In this document: in pieces, positions 50 to 10,612 of the stretch
Layout of the letters: each line of letters opens with the position of its first letter
Position numbering within the stretch: the stretch's first letter is position 1
Origin: a virus
UHGV virus genome: UHGV-0162104
Direction: 5' to 3' (one strand)
DNA length: 10,612 nt
Notes under the pieces: model-generated
The model's input: only the letters and a program-made list of their open reading frames with translations
Databases searched by the model: none
What the model was told of the DNA's origin: nothing
Position numbers and translations under genes: made by a program

Positions 50-2995
50 TTAGTGCTTCCCTTCTATTAAGTCTAACCTAGCTTTTATTCTTTCTATTTC
101 TCTGCGCTGCCATGCTGCCTCGATATAGAATAAGAGATCAGGTCTGACCCCCCATCTAGATCCTGCTGGCGTTATTTCAACGCGCTCAATGATGTCTTCC
201 ATTACCATCACTGGATTATCATCCTCATCAACAATGATGCTCCCGTCATTATCAGTCAGCGGCATTTCCCTTTGGCCAGTAATGACGTCATCATATACTG
301 CGGGATAATCGTCATAACAAAGAAAGGCATAGCGGCATGTTGTGCTTTCTTCTTCCATGAGTCCGTGAGAAATAAGAACATCACGAAGTTGCTGCGCGAT
401 TACACCATGATGTATCCTCGCCCCTTCTTCCCCCTTTATAGCGACAGCGTTCAGCCATTTATAAGCGATATACCTGACGTCACCCCAGGCATCCAGCAAT
501 GCTTCATCAGGAGAGACCGGCTCTGTCTTTAATGTTCCGTCACTGGTAACTACAGGGTTGGAGCCAAGATAAACTGTCGAGAACCTGTTTCCCGGATCAC
601 CAAGAGCATTTACATTATCAAGATAAGGTTTAACATCTCCGTTCTCAAAAAGATGTTCGAGTGCGTTATATACCGCGCGACGTGGAGTACTGCTTCCGGA
701 ACCATGCAACGTTATCATTGCACCATCTGCTGAAGACGTTGTTTCACCGCCGCTAACGATTAATCTCTGAGCGGTAACATCATCAGACGGTACTTTCTTC
801 GCAATAATGGCGTAATTACCCTCAAGTTTGACTTCCGCGCGAACTTGTCCTGATGTACCGGCATGGACAGTCAGTGACTGGACGGCAACATCATCTGTGA
901 AATCAACGGGTACAGGAACCGTCCTCACGCCTGACGTCGACATAAAAGTAGGAAGCGTTCTGTTAGGAGTGGCTCCGTAGACAAAATCCCTTGAAACAAA
1001 TTCTTCCTGTTTAATTTTCACCCTGAAACAATACAAATCAGCCGGGTGACCATCGTGAACATAAGGATATTTTCTGTTGTTATCCCCTATGCTCCATGGG
1101 TTTAGAAAGTCTTCCCCACCGAAAATGTAGTACAGCCAGTTGTCTTTGATACAAACTGAACCAACACCAACCGCAGAGTTAACTATTCCGCCCTGATAAA
1201 TCTGATCAGTAACATTAACCCACTCTACATTATCCAGACTCCACTCATTGACGTTAACTCTGGTCATAAATGTTCTTGGATAATTTCCTGCATAACGGTT
1301 ATCAGGTTCTCCTCCTTCCCACTCACCAAATGCGCGCTCACTGCCAAAAATAATCAGCTCATCGCCAACTTTGGCAAAAGGAAGGTTTGAGTGATGAACA
1401 TTATTTGGGAAGCGAAGAGAATTCCATGATGCACCTAAATCAGAGCTTCTGTGTAATGAACTACCGGGTTGAGTACTTAATGTTCCCCTGGTCGTCAGAT
1501 ACAGAATGCCATCATAATATTTTACACATGGCTCAGATGCATTCGCCTCATATTCTGCAGGTATGCGTCTGCGAACAAAGCTACCAGGAGAACCGAAAGC
1601 ATCAGAGAAATAGAGTATCCCAAGCTCGCGTGGCTCAATATCACCATTATGGTAGCCAACAGCAAAACTGTTATCGCTAATCGTCGCAAAACTGTGAATC
1701 TCAGTAACAGGAGTGCTTCCATCAACAAAAGAAGGAATAGTTCCAAGACGGGTTTTTCTCCATGGTGACGAGTGAAATGATGTACCAAAACTCCAGTATC
1801 TACCCTCGTTATTCTGATCCACATCCTGGGTATTTTGCGTCGTAACTGTAAAAGTATTTTTATCAATAACAGTAGTCACCGTCATATTCCCGGTAACACC
1901 TGTAACACCAGAGTTTGAGAAGTTGACAAAATCACCAGCAAATAATCCGTGATCAGTAATGCGAATATAAGCGACTTGCTGATTTGCTGCTTTCGTTATA
2001 CCACCATAAACGCGAAGGCTGCGACTCATTGGGCGATCCCACAACTCTGCAACCTGCAGTTTATTTCCGCTCACGGTCCGCGTCTCAATTACAGCAAAAA
2101 GGCGATTTCTGACAACCCCCATACTCATGCAGTGATAGTTAACTGTGGGATAGTTTTCATGTAAATCTGTAAGCCATTCCGGCGTTGTCCAGGTCTTCCC
2201 GTCATCTCCTGAGCGAACCCATGCAACATGGAGGTTATTTACACCATGGCGGTCTCCAGCCATAAAAGGCGCATAGATGACATTGTCATATACAAACGTC
2301 TTATCCTGCGTCCAGGCGTTGTACCACGGTGTATCTGTAATTTTAAACAACTCTCCCTGGATAAAATCTTCAGAAGCATAAAAAAGAGGCTGACCCGGTA
2401 TTCTCTCAAATAAAAAACGAGCATTTTTAAATCGACTGACATCCGGAAGAGTTGACACTTTAAAAGTAAGCCCTCGCCCATCTATCTTTTCACCACCTGT
2501 TGCAACAGAAAGTAATTCTGATAGAGCTGATGTGTCATCATGAACACCATCACCAATAGCCCCCCAACCTCTTAGATCATAACTGTCTCTCCATCTTGCT
2601 ATCTGAAGTTTTGGGTATTTATCCGCTCCATCTGGGTCTTCTAATTGCTGCCGTAGCTGATCAGGATCATACTTCAGCACATTAGGAAAATAGAACTGCT
2701 GTGCACCATACGCGTCATAAACAGCCATAGAATGGCCTTGCACAGTTACGAATTTGGCAATCTTCCCGTTATATACTGGGAATCCTGCTGCGTTAATAAC
2801 AATTGGCTGTGCTACCTGAACATGTTTACCATCTTCTCGTTCCAGATATACAGGGATCTGGTTTTCAGGATTTACAGGGTCAGTGTCAATTTTGCCGATA
2901 TAAATTTTGCCATTGGCTACGGCTTTAAAAGAACGCGCCATAGTGAAGAGTTGCGAAGGCATACTCACTACAACATTGGCTGTAATGTCTGTCAT
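50..2995 (-). CDS. Tailspike protein: P22-type head-binding N-terminal domain, sialidase-like central domain, C-terminal intramolecular-chaperone-like domain (predicted endosialidase-type capsule depolymerase)
   Basis: Intact 981-aa ORF with ATG at 2995..2993 and a GGAGA Shine-Dalgarno about 9 nt upstream. The first ~115 residues ([11 protein letters not shown]...[12 protein letters not shown]...VTVQGHSMA...NVLKYDPDQ) match the P22 gp9 head-binding domain as I recall it. Two Asp-box motifs (S-x-D-x-G-x-T/S-W) occur: SGDDGKTW at residues 262-269 (nt ~2189..2212) and SSDLGASW at residues 517-524 (nt ~1424..1447). The C-terminal ~150 residues (...[28 protein letters not shown]...) resemble the self-cleaving chaperone domain of endosialidases and other tail fibres. 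Confidence 0.8.
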
Positions 2996-3159
2996 TTAAT
3001 TTTCTCCAGACGTAGCAATGCGGAACAAGATGCAACTTGCCCGGCATTGCATTAATGTCAGTTATGATTTGTTAACTATGAGATGAGTCTATGCAAAAAG
3101 ATCTGTTGAATATTGCGTTCTATATATTTGGTTTTTGCACATTCCTGGTGTTTGCAAAG

Positions 3160-3885
3160 CTATTCTGACAACGAATCAGACTTCGCACCCTGCGTCAGGG
3201 CGTTAATTGCCTTTTGTGCCTGCTGCATGGCTTTCTCAAACGCTGTTGATCCGCGTGTGGTGTTTGCCATTCGGAGCATTGCATTTCTGAATGGCTCGCT
3301 CTCATAGGCGCGAGTAAGAAGTCCGTAGCTTACTGCTGCGCCAGTTGTCGCCGGGTTCATTGCCGTCCCATATCCAATAATGAACGGGATGGTTTGCTGC
3401 CCTGTGGGTGTTGTTACTGCCGCTTTTGCTGCCTGCTGAGTGGACTGAAGGTAGTTTTTCAATCCTTTCAGATAAGCAGCGTCCTGACCCTTAAATGTGA
3501 TGCCAGTCTGGTTTTGCAGGATGTTAAGCTGTCGAAGGAACTGGTCAGGGGAACCGCCTGATTTCTCCATTGCCTTGGCAATGATGCCATTGCGCATTTG
3601 CGCCCTGCCAACACGACCAACTGAGTTATACAGCGTCTTAATTTCCGATTTGTTCTTGCTGAATAGCATGTTGTTGACAACTTCCGGCGTCAGGTCGCCT
3701 TTCATGAGAACATTCTTCAGCCTGGTATTCTTTAGTTTCGCCGCTTCGTCAGCGTAGACGGCATTGGCCTGCTGATATTTACGGAGAGTATCGTTGCCAA
3801 GATTCTGACCAATGGCACCATTGATATCGTCAGTCATAGCCTTGTAAACGCGCTGAATGGCGGCATCGGAACGGTTTGGTAACAC
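3160..3885 (-). CDS. Ejection/DNA-transfer-like protein, either a separate 241-aa gene with a GTG start or the C-terminal part of a frameshifted larger gene
   Basis: 241-aa ORF directly upstream of the tailspike on the same strand, the position held by ejection proteins in P22-like phages. GTG start at 3885 preceded by AAGGG. It overlaps the upstream ORF by 51 nt. Function is assigned by position and composition only. Confidence 0.45.
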   Translation of the reverse strand: MLPNRSDAAIQRVYKAMTDDINGAIGQNLGNDTLRKYQQANAVYADEAAKLKNTRLKNVLMKGDLTPEVVNNMLFSKNKSEIKTLYNSVGRVGRAQMRNGIIAKAMEKSGGSPDQFLRQLNILQNQTGITFKGQDAAYLKGLKNYLQSTQQAAKAAVTTPTGQQTIPFIIGYGTAMNPATTGAAVSYGLLTRAYESEPFRNAMLRMANTTRGSTAFEKAMQQAQKAINALTQGAKSDSLSE

Positions 3886-5153
3886 AGGTCACCCTTCACG
3901 TCCATTCTGAACTGGCTGCGCAGATCGCTTAATTGCTTCAAATCCAGAGTTACCGGGCCATTAGGACCAGCATTGCGAACAAGCTCATCACGATATGACT
4001 GAAGTTTTGAAATCGTCTCGTTATCAGCGACCTTACCAAGCTTCTGCAGGTTAGATATCTCAGTATCTATCTGCTGAATTGCTCTGGCAGGTTGAATGTT
4101 GACTCCTGCCATTGCATTCCGAACCTGCTCAAGTCTATTACCTGCGGCACGACGAATTCCTGATGTTTTCGCTTTAAGGCTGTCAATAATAACCGCTGGA
4201 TCATACTCACCGAATTTATCAGCAAATCTCTGCACCAACTGACTTCTCGCTTCCTGTTGCGTTGCTCTCATTCCGCTTGTGCCAGCCAGGGGGATATTTT
4301 CTGCTGTCGTTTGCGCCATTTTTCCGACGCGGGAAGTAGGCTGTAAGAGGTCAGTAGTATGAAGAGGTACTCCTTCACGCTCTGCAAATCTGATAGCCTG
4401 TTGCGCTTCTGGTGCGATAGCACCACGAACGCCACGATAAGCAGCACCTAATCCACGTCCGGCAGCGTTAATAGCGCCTCCAGCCAAAACACCAACGCCT
4501 AAATCGGTGGCGAGTGCTTCCGCATCATCTTTCGCACTATTTGCAGCAAGTGTTCCGACTGCGTTTTCTGCGAGAAGGCGAGTTGCACCCTGAGCAATTC
4601 GACCAGCAAGTGTTGGTGCCAGTGTTGCCGCTCTCTCAACGCCAGCAGGAGTGAGATAAGGCAATGCCTCCGCAAATACCCTGCCCTCTGTCGTTTGTGG
4701 AGTCAGCGCGCCTTGCTGAAGACCAAAGTCCTGTTCTAATCCCTGCGTTGTTACTCGTGGCGCTGGTTGATATGTCCCATCGCCAATGCCGAGTTTACCG
4801 CCAGCCCATGCCGCCGCGCTTGTTACAGCATCGGCAACTGATGCAGGTATGTTTGCCACGTTCACGCCAGCCTGCACCAGTCCGCGACCAGTCTCTTTCA
4901 CTGCTTCACCAAGGTCAGACATAAATCTACTTTGCTGTGGTTGTTGCTGTGCTACTGGTTGCTGTGTCTCCACTGGCTGCACAGATGGCAATGGATAGGC
5001 AGCATAGAAAGCTTGCTTAGCCTGCTCTGCATTTTCTCCGGCTTGCGGTGCCACGACTTCATTGAAGTATTGCTCCTGAGCCTGCGCTTTTTGTTCTGGT
5101 GCTAACGCCTGATACTGTGGAGAGGCGATAACATCTTTCCATGCTTTAGCCAT
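3834..5153 (-). CDS. Ejection/DNA-transfer-like protein (P22 gp20/gp16-like by position), Ala/Gln/Gly-rich
   Basis: 439-aa ORF with ATG at 5153..5151 and GGGGTGA about 5 nt upstream. Its start overlaps the upstream stop in a TAATG coupling motif. The last ~18 residues (DLCYQTVPMPPFSAFTRL) look non-native, which suggests a frame problem near the 3' end. Confidence 0.5.
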   Translation of the reverse strand: MAKAWKDVIASPQYQALAPEQKAQAQEQYFNEVVAPQAGENAEQAKQAFYAAYPLPSVQPVETQQPVAQQQPQQSRFMSDLGEAVKETGRGLVQAGVNVANIPASVADAVTSAAAWAGGKLGIGDGTYQPAPRVTTQGLEQDFGLQQGALTPQTTEGRVFAEALPYLTPAGVERAATLAPTLAGRIAQGATRLLAENAVGTLAANSAKDDAEALATDLGVGVLAGGAINAAGRGLGAAYRGVRGAIAPEAQQAIRFAEREGVPLHTTDLLQPTSRVGKMAQTTAENIPLAGTSGMRATQQEARSQLVQRFADKFGEYDPAVIIDSLKAKTSGIRRAAGNRLEQVRNAMAGVNIQPARAIQQIDTEISNLQKLGKVADNETISKLQSYRDELVRNAGPNGPVTLDLKQLSDLRSQFRMDVKGDLCYQTVPMPPFSAFTRL

Positions 5154-5769
5154 TAATCACCCCATAGTGAAGAAAAGTTACTGCCAGTAGTAGATTGTTG
5201 CCCTGGCATATTCTGCACCGGCTCCTGATAATCAAACTGTTTTTTAACAGTGCTCAACTTGCTTTCAAGCTGATTTCTAATCTTTCCGATAGAGTCACGA
5301 AAAGCCTTTTCACTCATTTTGGGGCTTAGGGCACCAACCGCATCGGATAATTTTTTACCCTCAGCATCTGAAAGAGCGCCCATACCCTTCAGGGACTGCA
5401 CCATAGGAAGGAATGTTTGAGCTTTAAAGGTGTCGAGCCTTGCTTCAAAGTTAGCCGCATCAGAGCCAGGAACTGTCGGAAACGCTGAGCGAATTCCTAC
5501 TGCTTTTGAAAGGCCGGGGCTTTGCTCTATCTCGTTGAGAGAATCAAGCGCGGTGCTGAACGTATCAACTGCACCCTGAGCGGCGGCCTGCCTGTCAGCG
5601 CGGGCTATGTCAGCCTTTTGCCGAACATCTGCCTGTTTCTGTTTTAGCTCTTCAAGCTTTAACTGATTGCTTTCTCTGGCTATCTGTCTGTCCAGAGCCT
5701 TTTCTTGTAATTCTGCTCTTTGTATTTCGCGGGAAAGAGCAGCATTCTGTGCGCTGATGTTCTGTCCAC
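5153..5769 (-). pseudogene. 5'-truncated gene fragment encoding the C-terminal ~205 aa of a coiled-coil protein (ejection-protein-like by position); no start codon
   Basis: The minus-strand frame is open from ~5807 to the stop at 5153 and reads ...[68 protein letters not shown]...MVQSLKGMGAL...SSLWGD. There is no ATG, GTG or TTG upstream of the internal Met at 5404. Its 5' end runs into the truncated holin in another frame. The 83-aa ORF 5153..5404 in the supplied track is its tail. Confidence 0.55.
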
Positions 5770-6012
5770 GTAGCCGATGAACACGCTCGTTATATAAGCG
5801 AGATTGCTACTTAGTCCGGCGAAGTCGAGAAGGTCACGAATGAACCAGGCGATAATGGCGCACATCGTTGCGTCGATTACTGTTTTTGTAAACGCACCGC
5901 CATTATATCTGCCGCGAAGGTACGCCATTGCAAACGCAAGGATTGCCCCGATGCCTTGTTCCTTTGCCGCGAGAATGGCGGCTAACAGGTCATGTTTTTC
6001 TGGCATCTTCAT
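5770..6012 (-). pseudogene. S: Lambda-type class I holin S, 3'-truncated after codon 81 (of 107 in lambda S as I recall it) and fused to unrelated sequence
   Basis: Translation [81 protein letters not shown] matches lambda S from memory, including the Met1-Lys2-Met3 dual-start motif. After Y81 (nt 5772..5770) it continues as [29 protein letters not shown], unrelated to the lambda S tail, while another frame opens into the downstream fragment. Confidence 0.75.
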
Positions 6013-6303: not shown

Positions 6304-6338
6304 AAAACGCAAAAAGCCCCGAGCTATTAACTCAGGGC
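6304..6338 (-). terminator. Intrinsic terminator downstream of the late promoter (tR'-like)
   Basis: On the minus strand: GCCCTGAG / TTAATAG loop / CTCGGGGC, an 8-bp stem with one internal mismatch, followed directly by TTTTTGCGTTTT. It lies about 30-60 nt downstream of the predicted promoter. Confidence 0.6.
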
Positions 6339-6367
6339 TTTATTTAACGAGTGCATTTATCCATCGT

Positions 6368-6403
6368 TGAGTCAAATTTACCCAACTTTATTCAAAAAGT
6401 CAA
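6368..6403 (-). promoter_or_regulatory. Late promoter pR'-like with the adjacent Q-utilisation region
   Basis: On the minus strand: -35 TTGACT (6403..6398), 17-nt spacer, -10 TAAATT (6380..6375), then TGACTCAACGATGG. This closely matches the lambda pR'/qut sequence as I recall it, and it sits between the Q fragment and S in the correct orientation. Confidence 0.6.
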
Positions 6404-6445
6404 TATTATGCCGTTAATATGTTGCCATCCGTGGCAATCATGCTG

Positions 6446-6841
6446 CTAACGTGTGACCGCGTTCAAAATGTTGTCTGCGATTGACTCTTCCTTGTGGCAT
6501 TGCACCACCAGAGCGTCATACAGCGGCTTAACAGTGCGTGACCAGGTGGGTTGGGTAAGGTTTGGGATTAGCATCGTCACAGCGCGATATGCGGCGCTTG
6601 CTGGCATCCTTGAATAACCGACGCCTTTGCATCTTCCACACTCTTTCTCAACAACTCTCCCCCACTGCTCTGTTTTGGCAATATCAACCGCCCGACCTGT
6701 ACCGTGGCAATCTCTGCATCTTGCACCAGGCGTCGCGGCACTACGGCAATAATCCGCATAAGCGAATGTTGCGAGCACTTGCAGTACCTTTGCCTTAGTA
6801 TTTCCTTCAAGCTTTGCAACGCCACGGTATTTCCCCGATAC
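6446..6841 (-). pseudogene. Q: Late antiterminator Q (lambda Q family), 3' portion only; no credible start codon
   Basis: Residues ...VSGKYRGVAKLEGNTKAKVLQVLATFAYADYCRSAATPGARCRDCHGTGRAVDIAKTEQWGRVVEKECGRCKGVGYSRMPASAAYRAVTMLIPNLTQPTWSRTVKPLYDALVVQCHKEESIADNILNAVTR match the C-terminal ~130 aa of lambda Q from memory, including the CxxC...CxxC zinc-binding pattern. The frame is open upstream only to 6955, with no ATG; the track's start at 6919 is a TTG. The first ~26 residues do not resemble the Q N-terminus. Confidence 0.65.
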
Positions 6842-6872
6842 CGCAACAGCTACTCCGGCGAAAGCAAAGAAA

Positions 6873-7885: not shown

Positions 7886-8686
7886 ATGACCATCCACTTT
7901 CACGGCAGCCCAATATGGGGTGATGAGCATGCCCCTACAGATATGCTGATTAAAGCCCTTTACCGTGATGGTGGGGCTTTTGTTTCATTTGCCAGACCAG
8001 AGCAGATGAAAAAGATTGCCATGTTCCCTTGTGATATACGCCTTGATAACGGCGCTTTTAGCGAATGGATGAAAGCATTAAAGAAAGGCACTCCGGTAGA
8101 CTGGAGTAAGAGACGAGCAAAATTCTACGACTTTGTTGGGAAGTGGTTCAGCAGAATTGAATGGTTTCTTATACCTGACGTTATCGAAGGGACAGAGGCA
8201 GAAAACGACGAGCAGATTGAGTTGGTTCCTGATTGGCTAAAATCAAAAGCGGTTCCGGTCTGGCATACCGACGAATCAATTGAACGTCTTTTACGCCTTT
8301 CTGGCAAATTTGAATGGGTGGCGATTGGATGCTGCGGCCCACACAGGCACATACGCTCTAAATGGTGGGAACAGAGAATGGATGAAGTTTTCACTGAGCT
8401 TTATATCAATCGTAATTTGAAAGTGAAAATTCATGGTCTTCGAATGCTCGACGTGAGAGTTCTTGGTATGTATCCGTTCGCCAGTGCGGATTCTACTAAT
8501 GTTGCTGTTAACGTACCGAAGACAGAGAAGCGATTTCCTGAGATTACCGACAAACTGGCACGTACAGCTGTACTTCGCGCAGCTATTGAAAAGGTGCACC
8601 CACCATCGATATCAGCGTGGGTAGACAGAAAGATGAGAGAGCCGGCGCAAGCCGGTTTTTTATTTGAATTCATCGACGCCGCTTAA
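7886..8686 (+). CDS. Hypothetical early-region protein of unknown function (266 aa)
   Basis: ATG at 7886 with GGGGA 5-6 nt upstream; long ORF on the same strand as the neighbouring early genes. No motif I can assign with confidence; it has an N-terminal HFHG and an internal GCCGPHRH. Confidence 0.6.
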   Translation: MTIHFHGSPIWGDEHAPTDMLIKALYRDGGAFVSFARPEQMKKIAMFPCDIRLDNGAFSEWMKALKKGTPVDWSKRRAKFYDFVGKWFSRIEWFLIPDVIEGTEAENDEQIELVPDWLKSKAVPVWHTDESIERLLRLSGKFEWVAIGCCGPHRHIRSKWWEQRMDEVFTELYINRNLKVKIHGLRMLDVRVLGMYPFASADSTNVAVNVPKTEKRFPEITDKLARTAVLRAAIEKVHPPSISAWVDRKMREPAQAGFLFEFIDAA

Positions 8687-9178: not shown

Positions 9179-9469
9179 GTGGAAGAAGAAATCTTCACTC
9201 GTGAAGAAGCTGCGTCGTATCTGAAGGTAGACAAAGGCACTATCACGCAGTGGATACGAAGTGGACGACTTCAGGCCGCAAAGATAAATCCAGATAAACC
9301 TAAAAGCCCATATCGCATTTGCAAGTCAGACTGCATTGCGGCGCTTAAGTCTGTGAGACACAATAGCGCGGTGAATGCGGTTGATGTGCAGGAGGTTAAA
9401 GCATGTCAATCAAACTACGCGGTGGCACGTGGCACTGCGATTTCGTCGCGCCAGATGGATCAAGATTAG
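9179..9469 (+). CDS. xis: Excisionase (Xis/AlpA-like HTH DNA-binding protein), possibly shortened at its C-terminus by the same indel that disrupts int
   Basis: GTG start at 9179 with GGAG 7 nt upstream. The N-terminus FTREEAASYLKVDKGTITQWIRSGRL is a typical excisionase helix-turn-helix. It lies immediately upstream of and overlapping int. Stop TAG at 9467..9469. Confidence 0.7.
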   Translation: MEEEIFTREEAASYLKVDKGTITQWIRSGRLQAAKINPDKPKSPYRICKSDCIAALKSVRHNSAVNAVDVQEVKACQSNYAVARGTAISSRQMDQD

Positions 9470-10562
9470 ACGCTCTCTTGAAACATCGGACAAAAGGCAA
9501 GCGCAAGAACTTCACGATCGTCTGAAAGCAGAAGCGTGGAGAGTAAAAAATCTCGGGGAATCACCGAAAAAGCTATTCAAGGAAGCCTGCATACGGTGGC
9601 TGCGTGAGAAATCGGATAAGAAGTCCATTGATGATGACAAGAGCATTATATCGTTCTGGATGTTGCACTTCAGAGAAACCATTCTCTCTGACATAACAAC
9701 AGAAAAAATAATGGAGGCGGTAGACGGGATGGAAAACCGCCGCCATCGCCTGAACTGGGAGATGAGCCGGGACAGGTGTTTGCGGCTTGGCAAGCCAGTG
9801 CCGGAGTATAAACCAAAGCTGGCAAGCAAAGGAACGAAGACGCGGCATCTGGCAATACTTCGCGCTATTCTCAATATGGCTGTTGAATGGGGATGGCTTG
9901 ACAGGACGCCAAAAATATCAACACCACGCGTTAAGAATGGACGAATCAGATGGCTTACAGAGGAGGAATCGAAGCGCCTGTTTGCAGAAATTGTTCCTCA
10001 TATCTTCCCTGTGGTCATGTTTGCAATCACGACAGGCCTTCGCCGTTCCAACGTTACAGACCTTGAGTGGTCACAGGTCGATCTGGATAAGAAAATGGCA
10101 TGGATGCACCCTGATGAAACAAAAGCTGGCAATGCGATCGGAGTTCCTCTTAACGAAACCGCATGCCAGATATTAAGAAAACAGCAGGGACTCCATAAGA
10201 GATGGGTATTTGTCCACACCAAACCTGCCTACCGAAGCGACGGAACAAAAACAGCAGCGGTAAGGAAGATGAGAACCGACAGCAACAAAGCATGGAAGGG
10301 AGCGTTAAAGCGGGCAGGCATTAGCAATTTCCGCTTCCATGACCTGAGGCATACCTGGGCAAGCTGGCTGGTTCAGTCCGGTGTCTCTCTTCTTGCACTT
10401 AAAGAAATGGGAGGATGGGAAACTCTCGAAATGGTTCAAAGATACGCTCACCTTTCAGCCGGGCATCTCACCGAGCACGCGAGCAAAATCGATGCGATTA
10501 TAAGTCGCAATGGCACAAATACGGCACAAGAGGAGAACGTAGTTTACTTAAATGCGAGGTAA
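9403..10562 (+). CDS. int: Tyrosine site-specific integrase (P22 Int family) with an apparent 1-nt frameshift near codon 20-21; possible pseudogene or sequencing error
   Basis: ATG at 9403 with GGAGG 7 nt upstream gives MSIKLRGGTWHCDFVAPDGS..., resembling the P22-family Int N-terminus as I recall it, then stops at 9523..9525. The body of the protein is in another frame (track ORF 9375..10562) and contains the catalytic signatures HDLRHTWASW and VQRYAHL. Stop at 10560..10562, 15 nt before the tRNA 3' end. Confidence 0.85.
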
Positions 10563-10576
10563 CTTATTGATTTAAA

Positions 10577-10612
10577 TGGTGCCGATAATAGGAGTCGAAC
10601 CTACGACCTTCG
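10577..10612 (-). tRNA. thrW: tRNA-Thr (thrW-like), 3' portion only; the gene continues beyond the window. Likely overlaps the prophage attachment core.
   Basis: The plus-strand sequence TGGTGCCGATAATAGGAGTCGAACCTACGACCTTCG is the reverse complement of a tRNA 3' end (...CGAAGGTCGTAGGTTCGACTCCTATTATCGGCACCA) with T-arm, acceptor stem and CCA. It matches E. coli thrW as I recall it, the known integration target of P22. Confidence 0.8.

Follow-up and report, generated by a model that had tools for sequence, protein, structure and literature searches.

A mosaic endosialidase tailspike gene of CUS-3 type, probably an intact relic in a decayed thrW prophage

The open reading frame (ORF) near the start of UHGV-0162104 (10,612 nucleotides, the whole stretch analysed, here called the window) very likely encodes a CUS-3-type endosialidase (endo-N-acetylneuraminidase) tailspike. 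The gene is a mosaic, probably left as an intact relic in a decayed thrW prophage that could not deploy it by itself. Based on the sequence comparisons, we put the probability of this reading at about 0.88. The ORF is 97.6% identical in DNA and 97.8% in protein to siaK1, the K1-capsule-degrading tailspike of prophage CUS-3 (ABQ88383.1, CP000711.1), and 22 of the 981 residues differ. The architecture is shared with CUS-3, as the original prediction had proposed: both proteins have 981 residues and the same six domains, 959 residues are identical, and neuO is the next gene in both. The computed mass is 109.4 kDa, consisting of a mature chain of 90.7 kDa and a chaperone of 18.7 kDa to be released; the predicted 109 kDa is the size given for the CUS-3 enzyme. 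A good Shine-Dalgarno sequence precedes the ORF. No NCBIfam model matches the protein. The CUS-3 record annotates the endo-alpha-sialidase activity of siaK1 as directly assayed (Stummeyer et al. 2006, PMID 16689790), and from the 97.8% identity the window tailspike is expected to hydrolyze alpha-2,8-polysialic acid. The adjoining neuO, which encodes a polysialic-acid O-acetyltransferase, supports the link to polysialic acid. The combination of a P22-type head-binding domain, an endosialidase and a chaperone is a textbook case of tailspike module swapping (PMC5380687); the architecture is already known and the protein itself is nothing new.

The domains are arranged in the order of Table 1, where the beta-barrel and the stalk are assigned at the level of domain profiles. 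The N-terminal ~115 residues had been called P22-type, and this is borne out by the full-length Head_binding match. Among structures, the Sf6 tailspike 7sg7 (E = 4.2e-60) and the P22 tailspike 8tvr (E = 5.1e-51) match aa 1 to ~120, and 1lkt is also found. The PF12217 profile is covered in full (1–367). Both of the sialidase-type Asp boxes that had been proposed are present, and they are the only S-x-D-x-G-x-x-W matches in the tailspike. The suggested search against endoNF of coliphage K1F (1v0e, 3gvl, 3gw6) and CUS-3 endosialidase finds both. The catalytic unit of endoNF aligns end to end with the window tailspike: 3gvl/1v0e match aa 145–817 with 1048 bits (E = 0), and residues 246–910 of endoNF are 66% identical (439/665) to aa 146–817. 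The scores of the structure matches lie far above chance level. According to the 1v0e alignment, H350, R549, E581, R596 and R647 of endoNF correspond to H250, R456, E488, R503 and R554 here (catalytic residue list from PMC12632334). Q330, D331, H527, S528, K585 and N699 of endoNF are also conserved. K410 of endoNF is replaced by Gly, which is also seen in the active CUS-3 enzyme, and phage-based screens show that K410 is not required (PMC12632334). The two proteins differ in the N-terminus, which is a T7-type adaptor in endoNF but a P22-type head-binding domain here. The window tailspike also has seven extra residues (FVDGSTP) following aa 422. Divergence from endoNF is greater in the chaperone domain, which carries an insertion of 8–9 aa.

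Table 1. Features of the tailspike gene and of the prophage remnant in the window.
Feature	Residues	Window position	Strand	Remarks
Complete tailspike ORF	981 aa + stop	50..2995	minus	ATG start, no internal stop
Head_binding (PF09008), Sf6/P22 type	1–113	2657..2995	minus	Pfam 1–113 of 113, E = 4.5e-64
End_N_terminal (PF12218), endosialidase N-terminal extension	146–212	2360..2560	minus	Pfam E = 8.8e-37
End_beta_propel (PF12217), six-bladed catalytic beta-propeller	213–662	1010..2359	minus	Pfam E = 8.4e-233
Asp box 1, SGDDGKTW	262–269	2189..2212	minus	motif match
End_beta_barrel (PF12195), lectin-like, polysialic-acid-binding type	324–406	1778..2026	minus	inserted in propeller; Pfam E = 1.2e-46
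Asp box 2, SSDLGASW	517–524	1424..1447	minus	motif match; SSDLGTSW in CUS-3
End_tail_spike (PF12219), stalk (triple beta-helix/beta-prism)	663–817	545..1009	minus	Pfam E = 3.5e-77
C-terminal intramolecular chaperone domain	818–981	53..544	minus	Peptidase_S74 (PF13884) aa 818–878, E = 1.6e-10
gp16-type DNA-ejection gene		3160..5153	minus	4-nt deletion at ~3885–3888, split into ORFs of 439 aa and 241 aa
gp20-type ejection gene, last 620 nt		5153..5772	minus	5' half deleted
Lambda-family holin, truncated after ~codon 82		5773..6012	minus	fused to gp20 DNA; chimeric 110-aa ORF 5680–6012
Late-promoter-like site (TTGACT-17-TAAATT) and strong terminator hairpin (PR'/tR' type)		6313..6403	minus	upstream of truncated holin and tailspike
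Lambda-type Q antiterminator		6446..6842	minus	truncated, first ~76 codons missing
Excisionase-like HTH gene		9179–9469	plus	part of 9179..10562
Tyrosine integrase, thrW-targeting type		9375–10562	plus	part of 9179..10562
thrW, tRNA-Thr(CGT), 3' 36 nt		10577..10612	minus	host gene, attL end; tRNA found on longer locus

The tailspike gene is a mosaic. A local, Sf6-like head-binding module is joined around codon 114 to a CUS-3-like catalytic and chaperone module. The identity to CUS-3 is 86.7% at nucleotides 1–345 of the gene and 99.0% at nucleotides 346–2946, and 11 of the 22 replacements fall in aa 9–78. Homology to Sf6 starts exactly at window position 2657, and the homology to Sf6 and to the E. 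coli G4/9 remnant begins at 2649–2657. The resemblance to P22 gp9 and Sf6 gp14 is limited to the N-terminal ~113–120 residues; both of these proteins bind their receptor through a right-handed beta-helix endorhamnosidase that has no cleaved chaperone. The best overall match is the tail fibre of vB_EcoP-720R6 (ON470605.1), with 97.9% identity in DNA and 19 aa differences, and prophages identical to 720R6 are found in E. coli Ecol_AZ159, M21816 and others. The gp16 and gp20 genes of 720R6 are homologous to those in the window (95.8%). However, 720R6 is a full-length Lederbergvirus: its ejection genes are intact, an mnt region separates gp16 from the tailspike, and neuO is absent. In the Uetakevirus vB_EcoP_ZX5 (MW722083.1), which belongs to another phage genus, the tail fibre has 1039 aa and an epsilon15-type N-terminus, while its endosialidase module (nucleotides 522–2914 of the gene) is 99.1% identical. 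The 99% identity of the catalytic module across P22-like and epsilon15-like temperate phages indicates a very recent module exchange.

The element carrying the tailspike gene is what remains of a P22-like prophage, ~12 kb at the tRNA-Thr gene thrW, with the tRNA gene and an att repeat of 219 nt as its boundaries. A metagenome scaffold in ENA, on which host genes flank both sides, matches the window at 100% identity. ARAGORN detects no tRNA on the window alone, because the window end cuts thrW, and the tRNA is found on the longer locus. An Rfam scan of the window gives no match. The excisionase-like and integrase region is 97.5–98% identical to HK75 and mEp213. The remnant lacks genes for head, tail, lysis, replication and immunity; the Q antiterminator and the holin are truncated, and gp16 is frameshifted. 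The original prediction had implied a functional phage tailspike, and this part does not stand: the gene lies within a virion-incompetent remnant distinct from CUS-3. CUS-3 has the order attL-int-neuO-siaK1-ant-mnt with a complete virion module, and its integrase adjoins neuO. In the window element this order is not seen; the integrase is of the thrW type and lies at the opposite end, 6.4 kb off, and the immI region, ant, mnt, and the morphogenesis, lysis and replication genes are missing. The host of CUS-3 is an E. coli K1 strain, while the host flank here falls outside E. coli. The gene order, the integrase and attachment site, the gene losses and the host flank rule out that the element is prophage CUS-3 itself. 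A satellite or PICI-like element was also considered and rejected, because no gene for replication or capsid redirection is present and truncations or frameshifts are evident in the late genes.

The C-terminus had been predicted to resemble the endosialidase chaperone, and PF13884 and the endoNF chaperone domain 3gw6 do match directly after the stalk (3gw6, E = 7.6e-94, also E = 1.9e-69 over aa 780–979). The cleavage serine and the Ser-Lys dyad, whose conservation had been proposed as a check, are present as Ser818 (nucleotides 542–544) and Lys823 (nucleotides 527–529). The stretch VVT-S818-DGTL-K823 aligns to IVT-S911-NGER-K916 of endoNF, where S911 is Ala in the crystallised chain. The numbering of the endoNF dyad, S911/K916, follows Schwarzer 2007 and Schulz 2010. 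The stalk-chaperone contact pair R866 and D994 of endoNF corresponds to R773 and D902. By analogy with endoNF and CUS-3, self-cleavage at Ser818 with Lys823 is predicted to occur on trimerisation. The C-terminal chaperone domain would assist three 109-kDa chains in folding and forming a trimer, and would then cut itself off at Ser818, aided by Lys823. The product would be a trimer of 90.7 kDa per chain whose N-terminal domain could dock on a P22/Sf6-type tail. The beta-propeller (E488, R503, R554, H250 and R456) would cleave alpha-2,8-polysialic acid, and the polymer may be held by the beta-barrel and the stalk.

Compared with CUS-3, the window tailspike has the lineage-specific residues R416, E454, A522 and D800. 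The last of these, G800D (nucleotides 596–598), is in the stalk within the conserved ALGG motif, just ahead of the cleavage site. An intact ORF might therefore encode a non-functional protein, in which case the gene would be a silent relic crippled by such missense changes. It is consistent with this idea that only the window allele and a single sister contig carry D800, that Gly is conserved in endoNF, CUS-3 and 720R6, and that the endoNF tailspike is described as structurally fragile, with about two-thirds of variants not tolerated (PMC12632334). However, all residues for catalysis, cleavage and stalk-chaperone contacts are conserved, and the lineage-specific changes are 4–6 replacements against 12 synonymous changes in 867 codons. 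Since the other sister contigs have Gly800, at most this one allele would be affected. We consider a dead protein unlikely.

Without head, tail, lysis, replication and immunity genes or an intact Q, the element would be unable to deploy the tailspike alone. The tailspike in the remnant is probably not expressed, and we infer that the gene is a still-intact relic kept alongside the capsule-modifying neuO. Here neuO is an in-frame, intact ORF of 223 aa with three imperfect heptads, compared with 19 in CUS-3. An undisrupted ORF of 2.9 kb beside disrupted neighbours could reflect selection instead of a relic, although the counts are too small to tell the two apart. Outside the head-binding domain, there are 14 synonymous and 8 non-synonymous changes relative to CUS-3, which are mostly older than the prophage decay.

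Such selection might act if the tailspike were a reservoir or helper part. In this case, a lambdoid phage, either co-resident or infecting, would with its lambda-type Q read through tR' and turn on the late transcript of the remnant, so that the endosialidase would be produced while the helper assembles. Its compatible head-binding domain could allow it to be mounted on P22-like tails (phenotypic mixing); alternatively, the gene could recombine into the helper. The progeny would then be specific for polysialic-acid capsules. The PR'-like promoter, the qut region and the tR' hairpin are intact upstream, though Q is truncated. The tailspike gene retains its ribosome-binding sequence and is undisrupted, next to a frameshifted gp16. 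The sharing of the catalytic module at 99% identity between Lederbergvirus prophages and a Uetakevirus indicates that the module is actively exchanged. On the other hand, the copies of the remnant are near-clonal, differing by at most two substitutions in the tailspike, so its intactness may only reflect recent decay. Besides, the tailspike of the related thrW remnant in E. coli G4/9 is destroyed by IS3, which shows that thrW remnants do not generally preserve the tailspike. Maintenance as a helper part is thus improbable. To a similarly small degree, it can be speculated that the virion-less E. ruysiae remnant is a functional cassette, in which an intact late promoter and terminator, dependent on Q, precede the intact depolymerase and a non-phase-variable neuO, and which is used by the host lineage or by passing P22-like phages. 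If so, a tailspike supplied in trans would retarget helper phages to polysialic-acid capsules; alternatively, the two genes might serve as a capsule-remodelling pair that acetylates and trims.

A chimeric metagenome assembly, with the gene derived from an ordinary, complete CUS-3-like prophage, could be suspected, as the window derives from a metagenome scaffold. No complete E. coli genome contains the junction between the truncated holin and gp20 or covers at least 80% of the window, and an exact 29-mer of the junction has no match in JGI metagenome contigs, a negative that is uninformative. However, the junction-specific ORF of 110 aa is seen in 12 contigs of independent origin from NCBI, ENA and Logan assemblies, with 99.6–100% identity and an unchanged order of genes from proBA through yagU; one of them is from the NCBI assembly GCA_019839765.1. 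This recurrence rules out an assembly error, and the absence from E. coli genomes is accounted for by a different host species. A chimera is therefore very unlikely. Practically negligible is the idea that the central domain has the beta-helix of a depolymerase other than a sialidase, with coincidental Asp boxes: nothing was found in its favour, and full-length endosialidase Pfam domains (E down to 8e-233), the 1048-bit endoNF match and the conserved catalytic residues refute it, so that neither of the outcomes that had been looked for against the original prediction, a beta-helix fold or lost catalytic residues, was found.

Among 5,426 complete E. coli genomes compared, none exceeds 92.7% identity to the host core flank, and the host PhoE has an exact match labelled E. 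ruysiae or E. marmotae. Judging from these sequences, the host is a non-coli Escherichia, probably E. ruysiae. It may have a K1-type capsule, as the original prediction suggested, for which the intact neuO beside the tailspike gene is indirect support only. Scanning species-representative genomes with the tailspike yields relatives of the head-binding domain only (Pantoea, Arsenophonus, Yokenella and one E. coli), none of which has the endosialidase part. A literature search retrieved no paper tying neuO or an endosialidase prophage to the cryptic Escherichia clades, and none that mentions the assembly or run accessions. In E. marmotae, K1 capsule genes have already been described. This case also illustrates that a genome scan may show an undamaged receptor-binding gene where there is no active phage. 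Finding a CUS-3-type endosialidase together with neuO in an Escherichia other than E. coli hints that polysialic-acid capsules and their phages are also in circulation outside E. coli.

The tailspike ORF of the original prediction is real and lies where it was placed, with the Shine-Dalgarno sequence GGAGA upstream of its ATG. Six parts of the protein are assigned by Pfam (see the table). The N-terminus matches the tailspike structures of Sf6 (7sg7, 4.2e-60) and P22 (8tvr, 5.1e-51; also 1lkt). The central 673 residues match endoNF, the endosialidase F of phage K1F (3gvl, 1v0e; E=0, 1048 bits), and the centre also matches the phi92 endosialidase (4hiz; E=3.9e-272). The C-terminus matches the crystal of the endoNF chaperone domain (3gw6; E=7.6e-94). 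The P22-type head-binding domain, the sialidase-like centre with two Asp boxes, and the chaperone-like C-terminus, all proposed at first without database searches, are recovered here. The precursor has a predicted mass of 109.4 kDa and would yield a mature chain of 90.7 kDa and a released domain of 18.7 kDa; a review gives 109 kDa for the CUS-3 enzyme (PMC5380687).

Coordinates of the tailspike domains and of other features (window positions unless aa or L006, the scaffold locus holding the window, is indicated)
Feature	Position	Strand	Remark
Tailspike ORF	50..2995	minus	Sole long ORF of the window; 981 aa, ATG start
Head_binding	aa 1-113		Pfam, E=4.5e-64
End_N_terminal	aa 146-212		Pfam
End_beta_propel	aa 213-662		Pfam, E=8.4e-233
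End_beta_barrel	aa 324-406		Pfam; inside End_beta_propel
End_tail_spike	aa 663-817		Pfam
Peptidase_S74	aa 818-878		Pfam
Asp boxes	aa 262-269; aa 517-524		Only S-x-D-x-G-x-x-W matches in the tailspike
G800D	596-598		
gp16-type DNA-ejection gene	3160-5153	minus	4-nt deletion at ~3885-3888
Holin/gp20 fragment junction	5772		
Truncated Q region	6313-6842	minus	
tR' terminator	6341-6313		Intact; 13-bp stem, strong hairpin
PR'-like promoter	6403-6375		Intact
Early-region ORF	7886-8686	plus	266 aa
Part of thrW, tRNA-Thr(CGT)	10577-10612		Window end
neuO-like gene	L006 13100-13771		Just outside the window, beside position 1
thrW / direct repeat	L006 2344-2419; L006 14435-14653		

Counted from the printed alignment, 439/665 residues (66%) are identical to endoNF, with one 7-residue insertion. 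The key catalytic residues listed by a deep mutational scan of the K1F tailspike, H350, R549, E581, R596, and R647 (PMC12632334), correspond to H250, R456, E488, R503, and R554 here, and 5/5 are conserved. Also conserved are the further intolerant or network positions Q330, D331, H527, S528, K585, and N699 (PMC12632334), which are Q230, D231, H434, S435, K492, and N606. K410 of endoNF is replaced by Gly, as in CUS-3, and is dispensable for phage infection (PMC12632334). R773 and D902 correspond to the R866-D994 pair of endoNF, noted as conserved (PMC12632334). The sequence VVT-S818-DGTL-K823 aligns to the endoNF cleavage site with Lys five residues after Ser; both the chaperone cleavage serine and the Ser-Lys dyad are thus kept. 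The crystallised endoNF chaperone chain has Ala in place of S818, and we take it to be the S911A mutant. The replacement G800D, in the conserved ALGG motif upstream of the cleavage site, is confined to this allele and a single sister contig; codon 800 is Gly in endoNF, CUS-3, the full-length Lederbergvirus prophage 720R6, and three other sister contigs.

At the DNA level, the gene is 97.9% identical to vB_EcoP-720R6 and 97.6% to CUS-3 siaK1 over the full length, 98.8% to phiv205-1 across nt 220-2946, and 99.1% to the Uetakevirus vB_EcoP_ZX5 across nt 522-2914 (window 82-2474; positions 3001-5393 of the ZX5 locus). The CUS-3 protein differs at 22 residues, 11 of which are inside aa 9-78. The first 345 nt of siaK1 are only 86.7% identical, whereas the other 2601 nt are 99.0% identical (26 mismatches), and the homology of Sf6 and a related E. 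coli remnant begins at window 2649-2657, the end of the head-binding domain. Based on these comparisons, the gene is a mosaic of modules joined at the classical boundary, which has been described for CUS-3, HK620, Sf6, and P22 (PMC5380687). The reading as a CUS-3-type chimeric endosialidase is correct: the protein is, at 98% identity, an allele of the characterised CUS-3 enzyme, whose endo-alpha-sialidase activity is annotated as directly assayed (the record cites PMID 16689790). Both architecture and enzyme are already known. The epsilon15-like temperate phage vB_EcoP_ZX5 carries the endosialidase module on a different N-terminus (1039 aa), and the 99.1% module identity indicates a very recent exchange across phage genera.

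The window is the reverse complement of L006 2384-12995 (100% identical), from a 32-kb ENA metagenome scaffold. The gene order is proB-proA, thrW, integrase, an excisionase-like gene, four early-left genes, truncated Q, late promoter and terminator, truncated holin, the 3' part of gp20, frameshifted gp16, tailspike, the neuO-like acetyltransferase, a partial second thrW/int end, and yagU-type host genes. The element is ~12.1 kb, with a 219-nt direct repeat (87% identity) at both ends; at attR, the repeat takes in the 3' fragment of an older integrase. The early-region ORF matches PHROG 887, "queuine tRNA-ribosyltransferase" (DpdA/TGT-like; E=6.9e-101), with no match in Pfam or NCBIfam, and may be what remains of a system for 7-deazaguanine DNA modification.

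The lambda-type Q lacks its first ~76 codons in comparison with mEpX1. The PR'-like promoter and the qut region, both 3' of Q, are intact. Without Q, the late transcript should stop at tR', and late transcription would need Q in trans. The holin family match ends at about residue 82, where the last 620 nt of gp20 adjoin. The gp16 deletion is defined by comparison with 720R6 and E. coli G4/9, in which the gene is intact, and the sister contigs L007 and L010 have an additional 2-nt deletion. Terminase, portal, coat, tail, lysozyme, repressor, and replication genes are absent. The element cannot make particles. A P22-like remnant in E. coli Tig228 (NZ_CM196107.1 1522682-1531904), also with no morphogenesis genes, has holin-lysozyme directly against gp20-gp16-tailspike; it represents an intermediate state, beyond which the window has a 1.2-kb deletion. 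Remnants that have lost their head-and-tail module but kept the lysis, ejection, and tailspike genes seem to arise repeatedly. The window shares the exact end of its gp20 fragment (...CCACGTA) with the thrW remnant of E. coli G4/9 (L003 12290), where the fragment is joined to a DUF551 fragment instead of the holin. This shared breakpoint could reflect either successive deletions or a hot spot.

No complete E. coli genome covers at least 80% of the window, and the holin/gp20 junction is absent from complete E. coli genomes. A chimeric 110-aa ORF dependent on this junction is found in 12 contigs, drawn from NCBI assembly GCA_019839765.1, four metagenomes in ENA, and four Logan run assemblies; gene order is the same in all of them, and each has the 981-aa tailspike intact. 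They are mutually 99.6-100% identical, with a few substitutions and the one extra gp16 deletion inside the element. The arrangement is genuine and comes from one closely related lineage. Its core flank frsA-crl-phoE-proB-proA (5.3 kb; L007 1-5300) does not exceed 92.7% identity in a comparison with 5,426 complete E. coli genomes; the ANI between E. ruysiae and E. coli is 92.8% (PMC8346766). UniRef and NCBI assign the exact PhoE sequence to E. ruysiae, and one record assigns it to E. marmotae. These facts indicate that the host is a cryptic-clade, non-coli Escherichia, probably E. ruysiae, which accounts for the lack of this arrangement among E. coli genomes.

The gene next to the tailspike is 98.7% identical in DNA to CUS-3 neuO and encodes a hexapeptide acetyltransferase of 223 aa. 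NeuO is a polysialic-acid O-acetyltransferase, phase-variable through a poly-psi heptad tract (PMC8653822). CUS-3 neuO has 19 perfect AAGACTC heptads, whereas three imperfect ones (AAGATTC AAAACTC AAGACTC) remain here, in frame. By that mechanism, the gene is probably constitutively translatable and not phase-variable. It lends indirect support to the proposed K1-type host. K1 capsule genes are reported in E. marmotae, another cryptic-clade species (PMC10457355); the literature search turned up nothing comparable for E. ruysiae.

The 2946 nt of the tailspike are undisrupted, and the neighbouring gp16 has one or two frameshifts. If 2.6 kb takes one or two such events, a 2.9-kb stretch stays free of them with a probability of ~0.1-0.3, so the intact frame is not evidence of selection. 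Of the codons that differ from CUS-3 in the catalytic-plus-chaperone part, 14 are synonymous and 8 non-synonymous, a ratio that indicates purifying selection, which would have acted mainly during the past in working phages. In the G4/9 remnant, IS3 cuts the tailspike after the head-binding domain; thrW remnants do lose this gene. A recent relic is the favoured reading, possibly protected through linkage to neuO, and a trans-activated or helper role is very improbable. What is new here is confined to two points: the tailspike sits in a non-coli Escherichia, within a decayed prophage at thrW, and a collapsed neuO repeat lies alongside.
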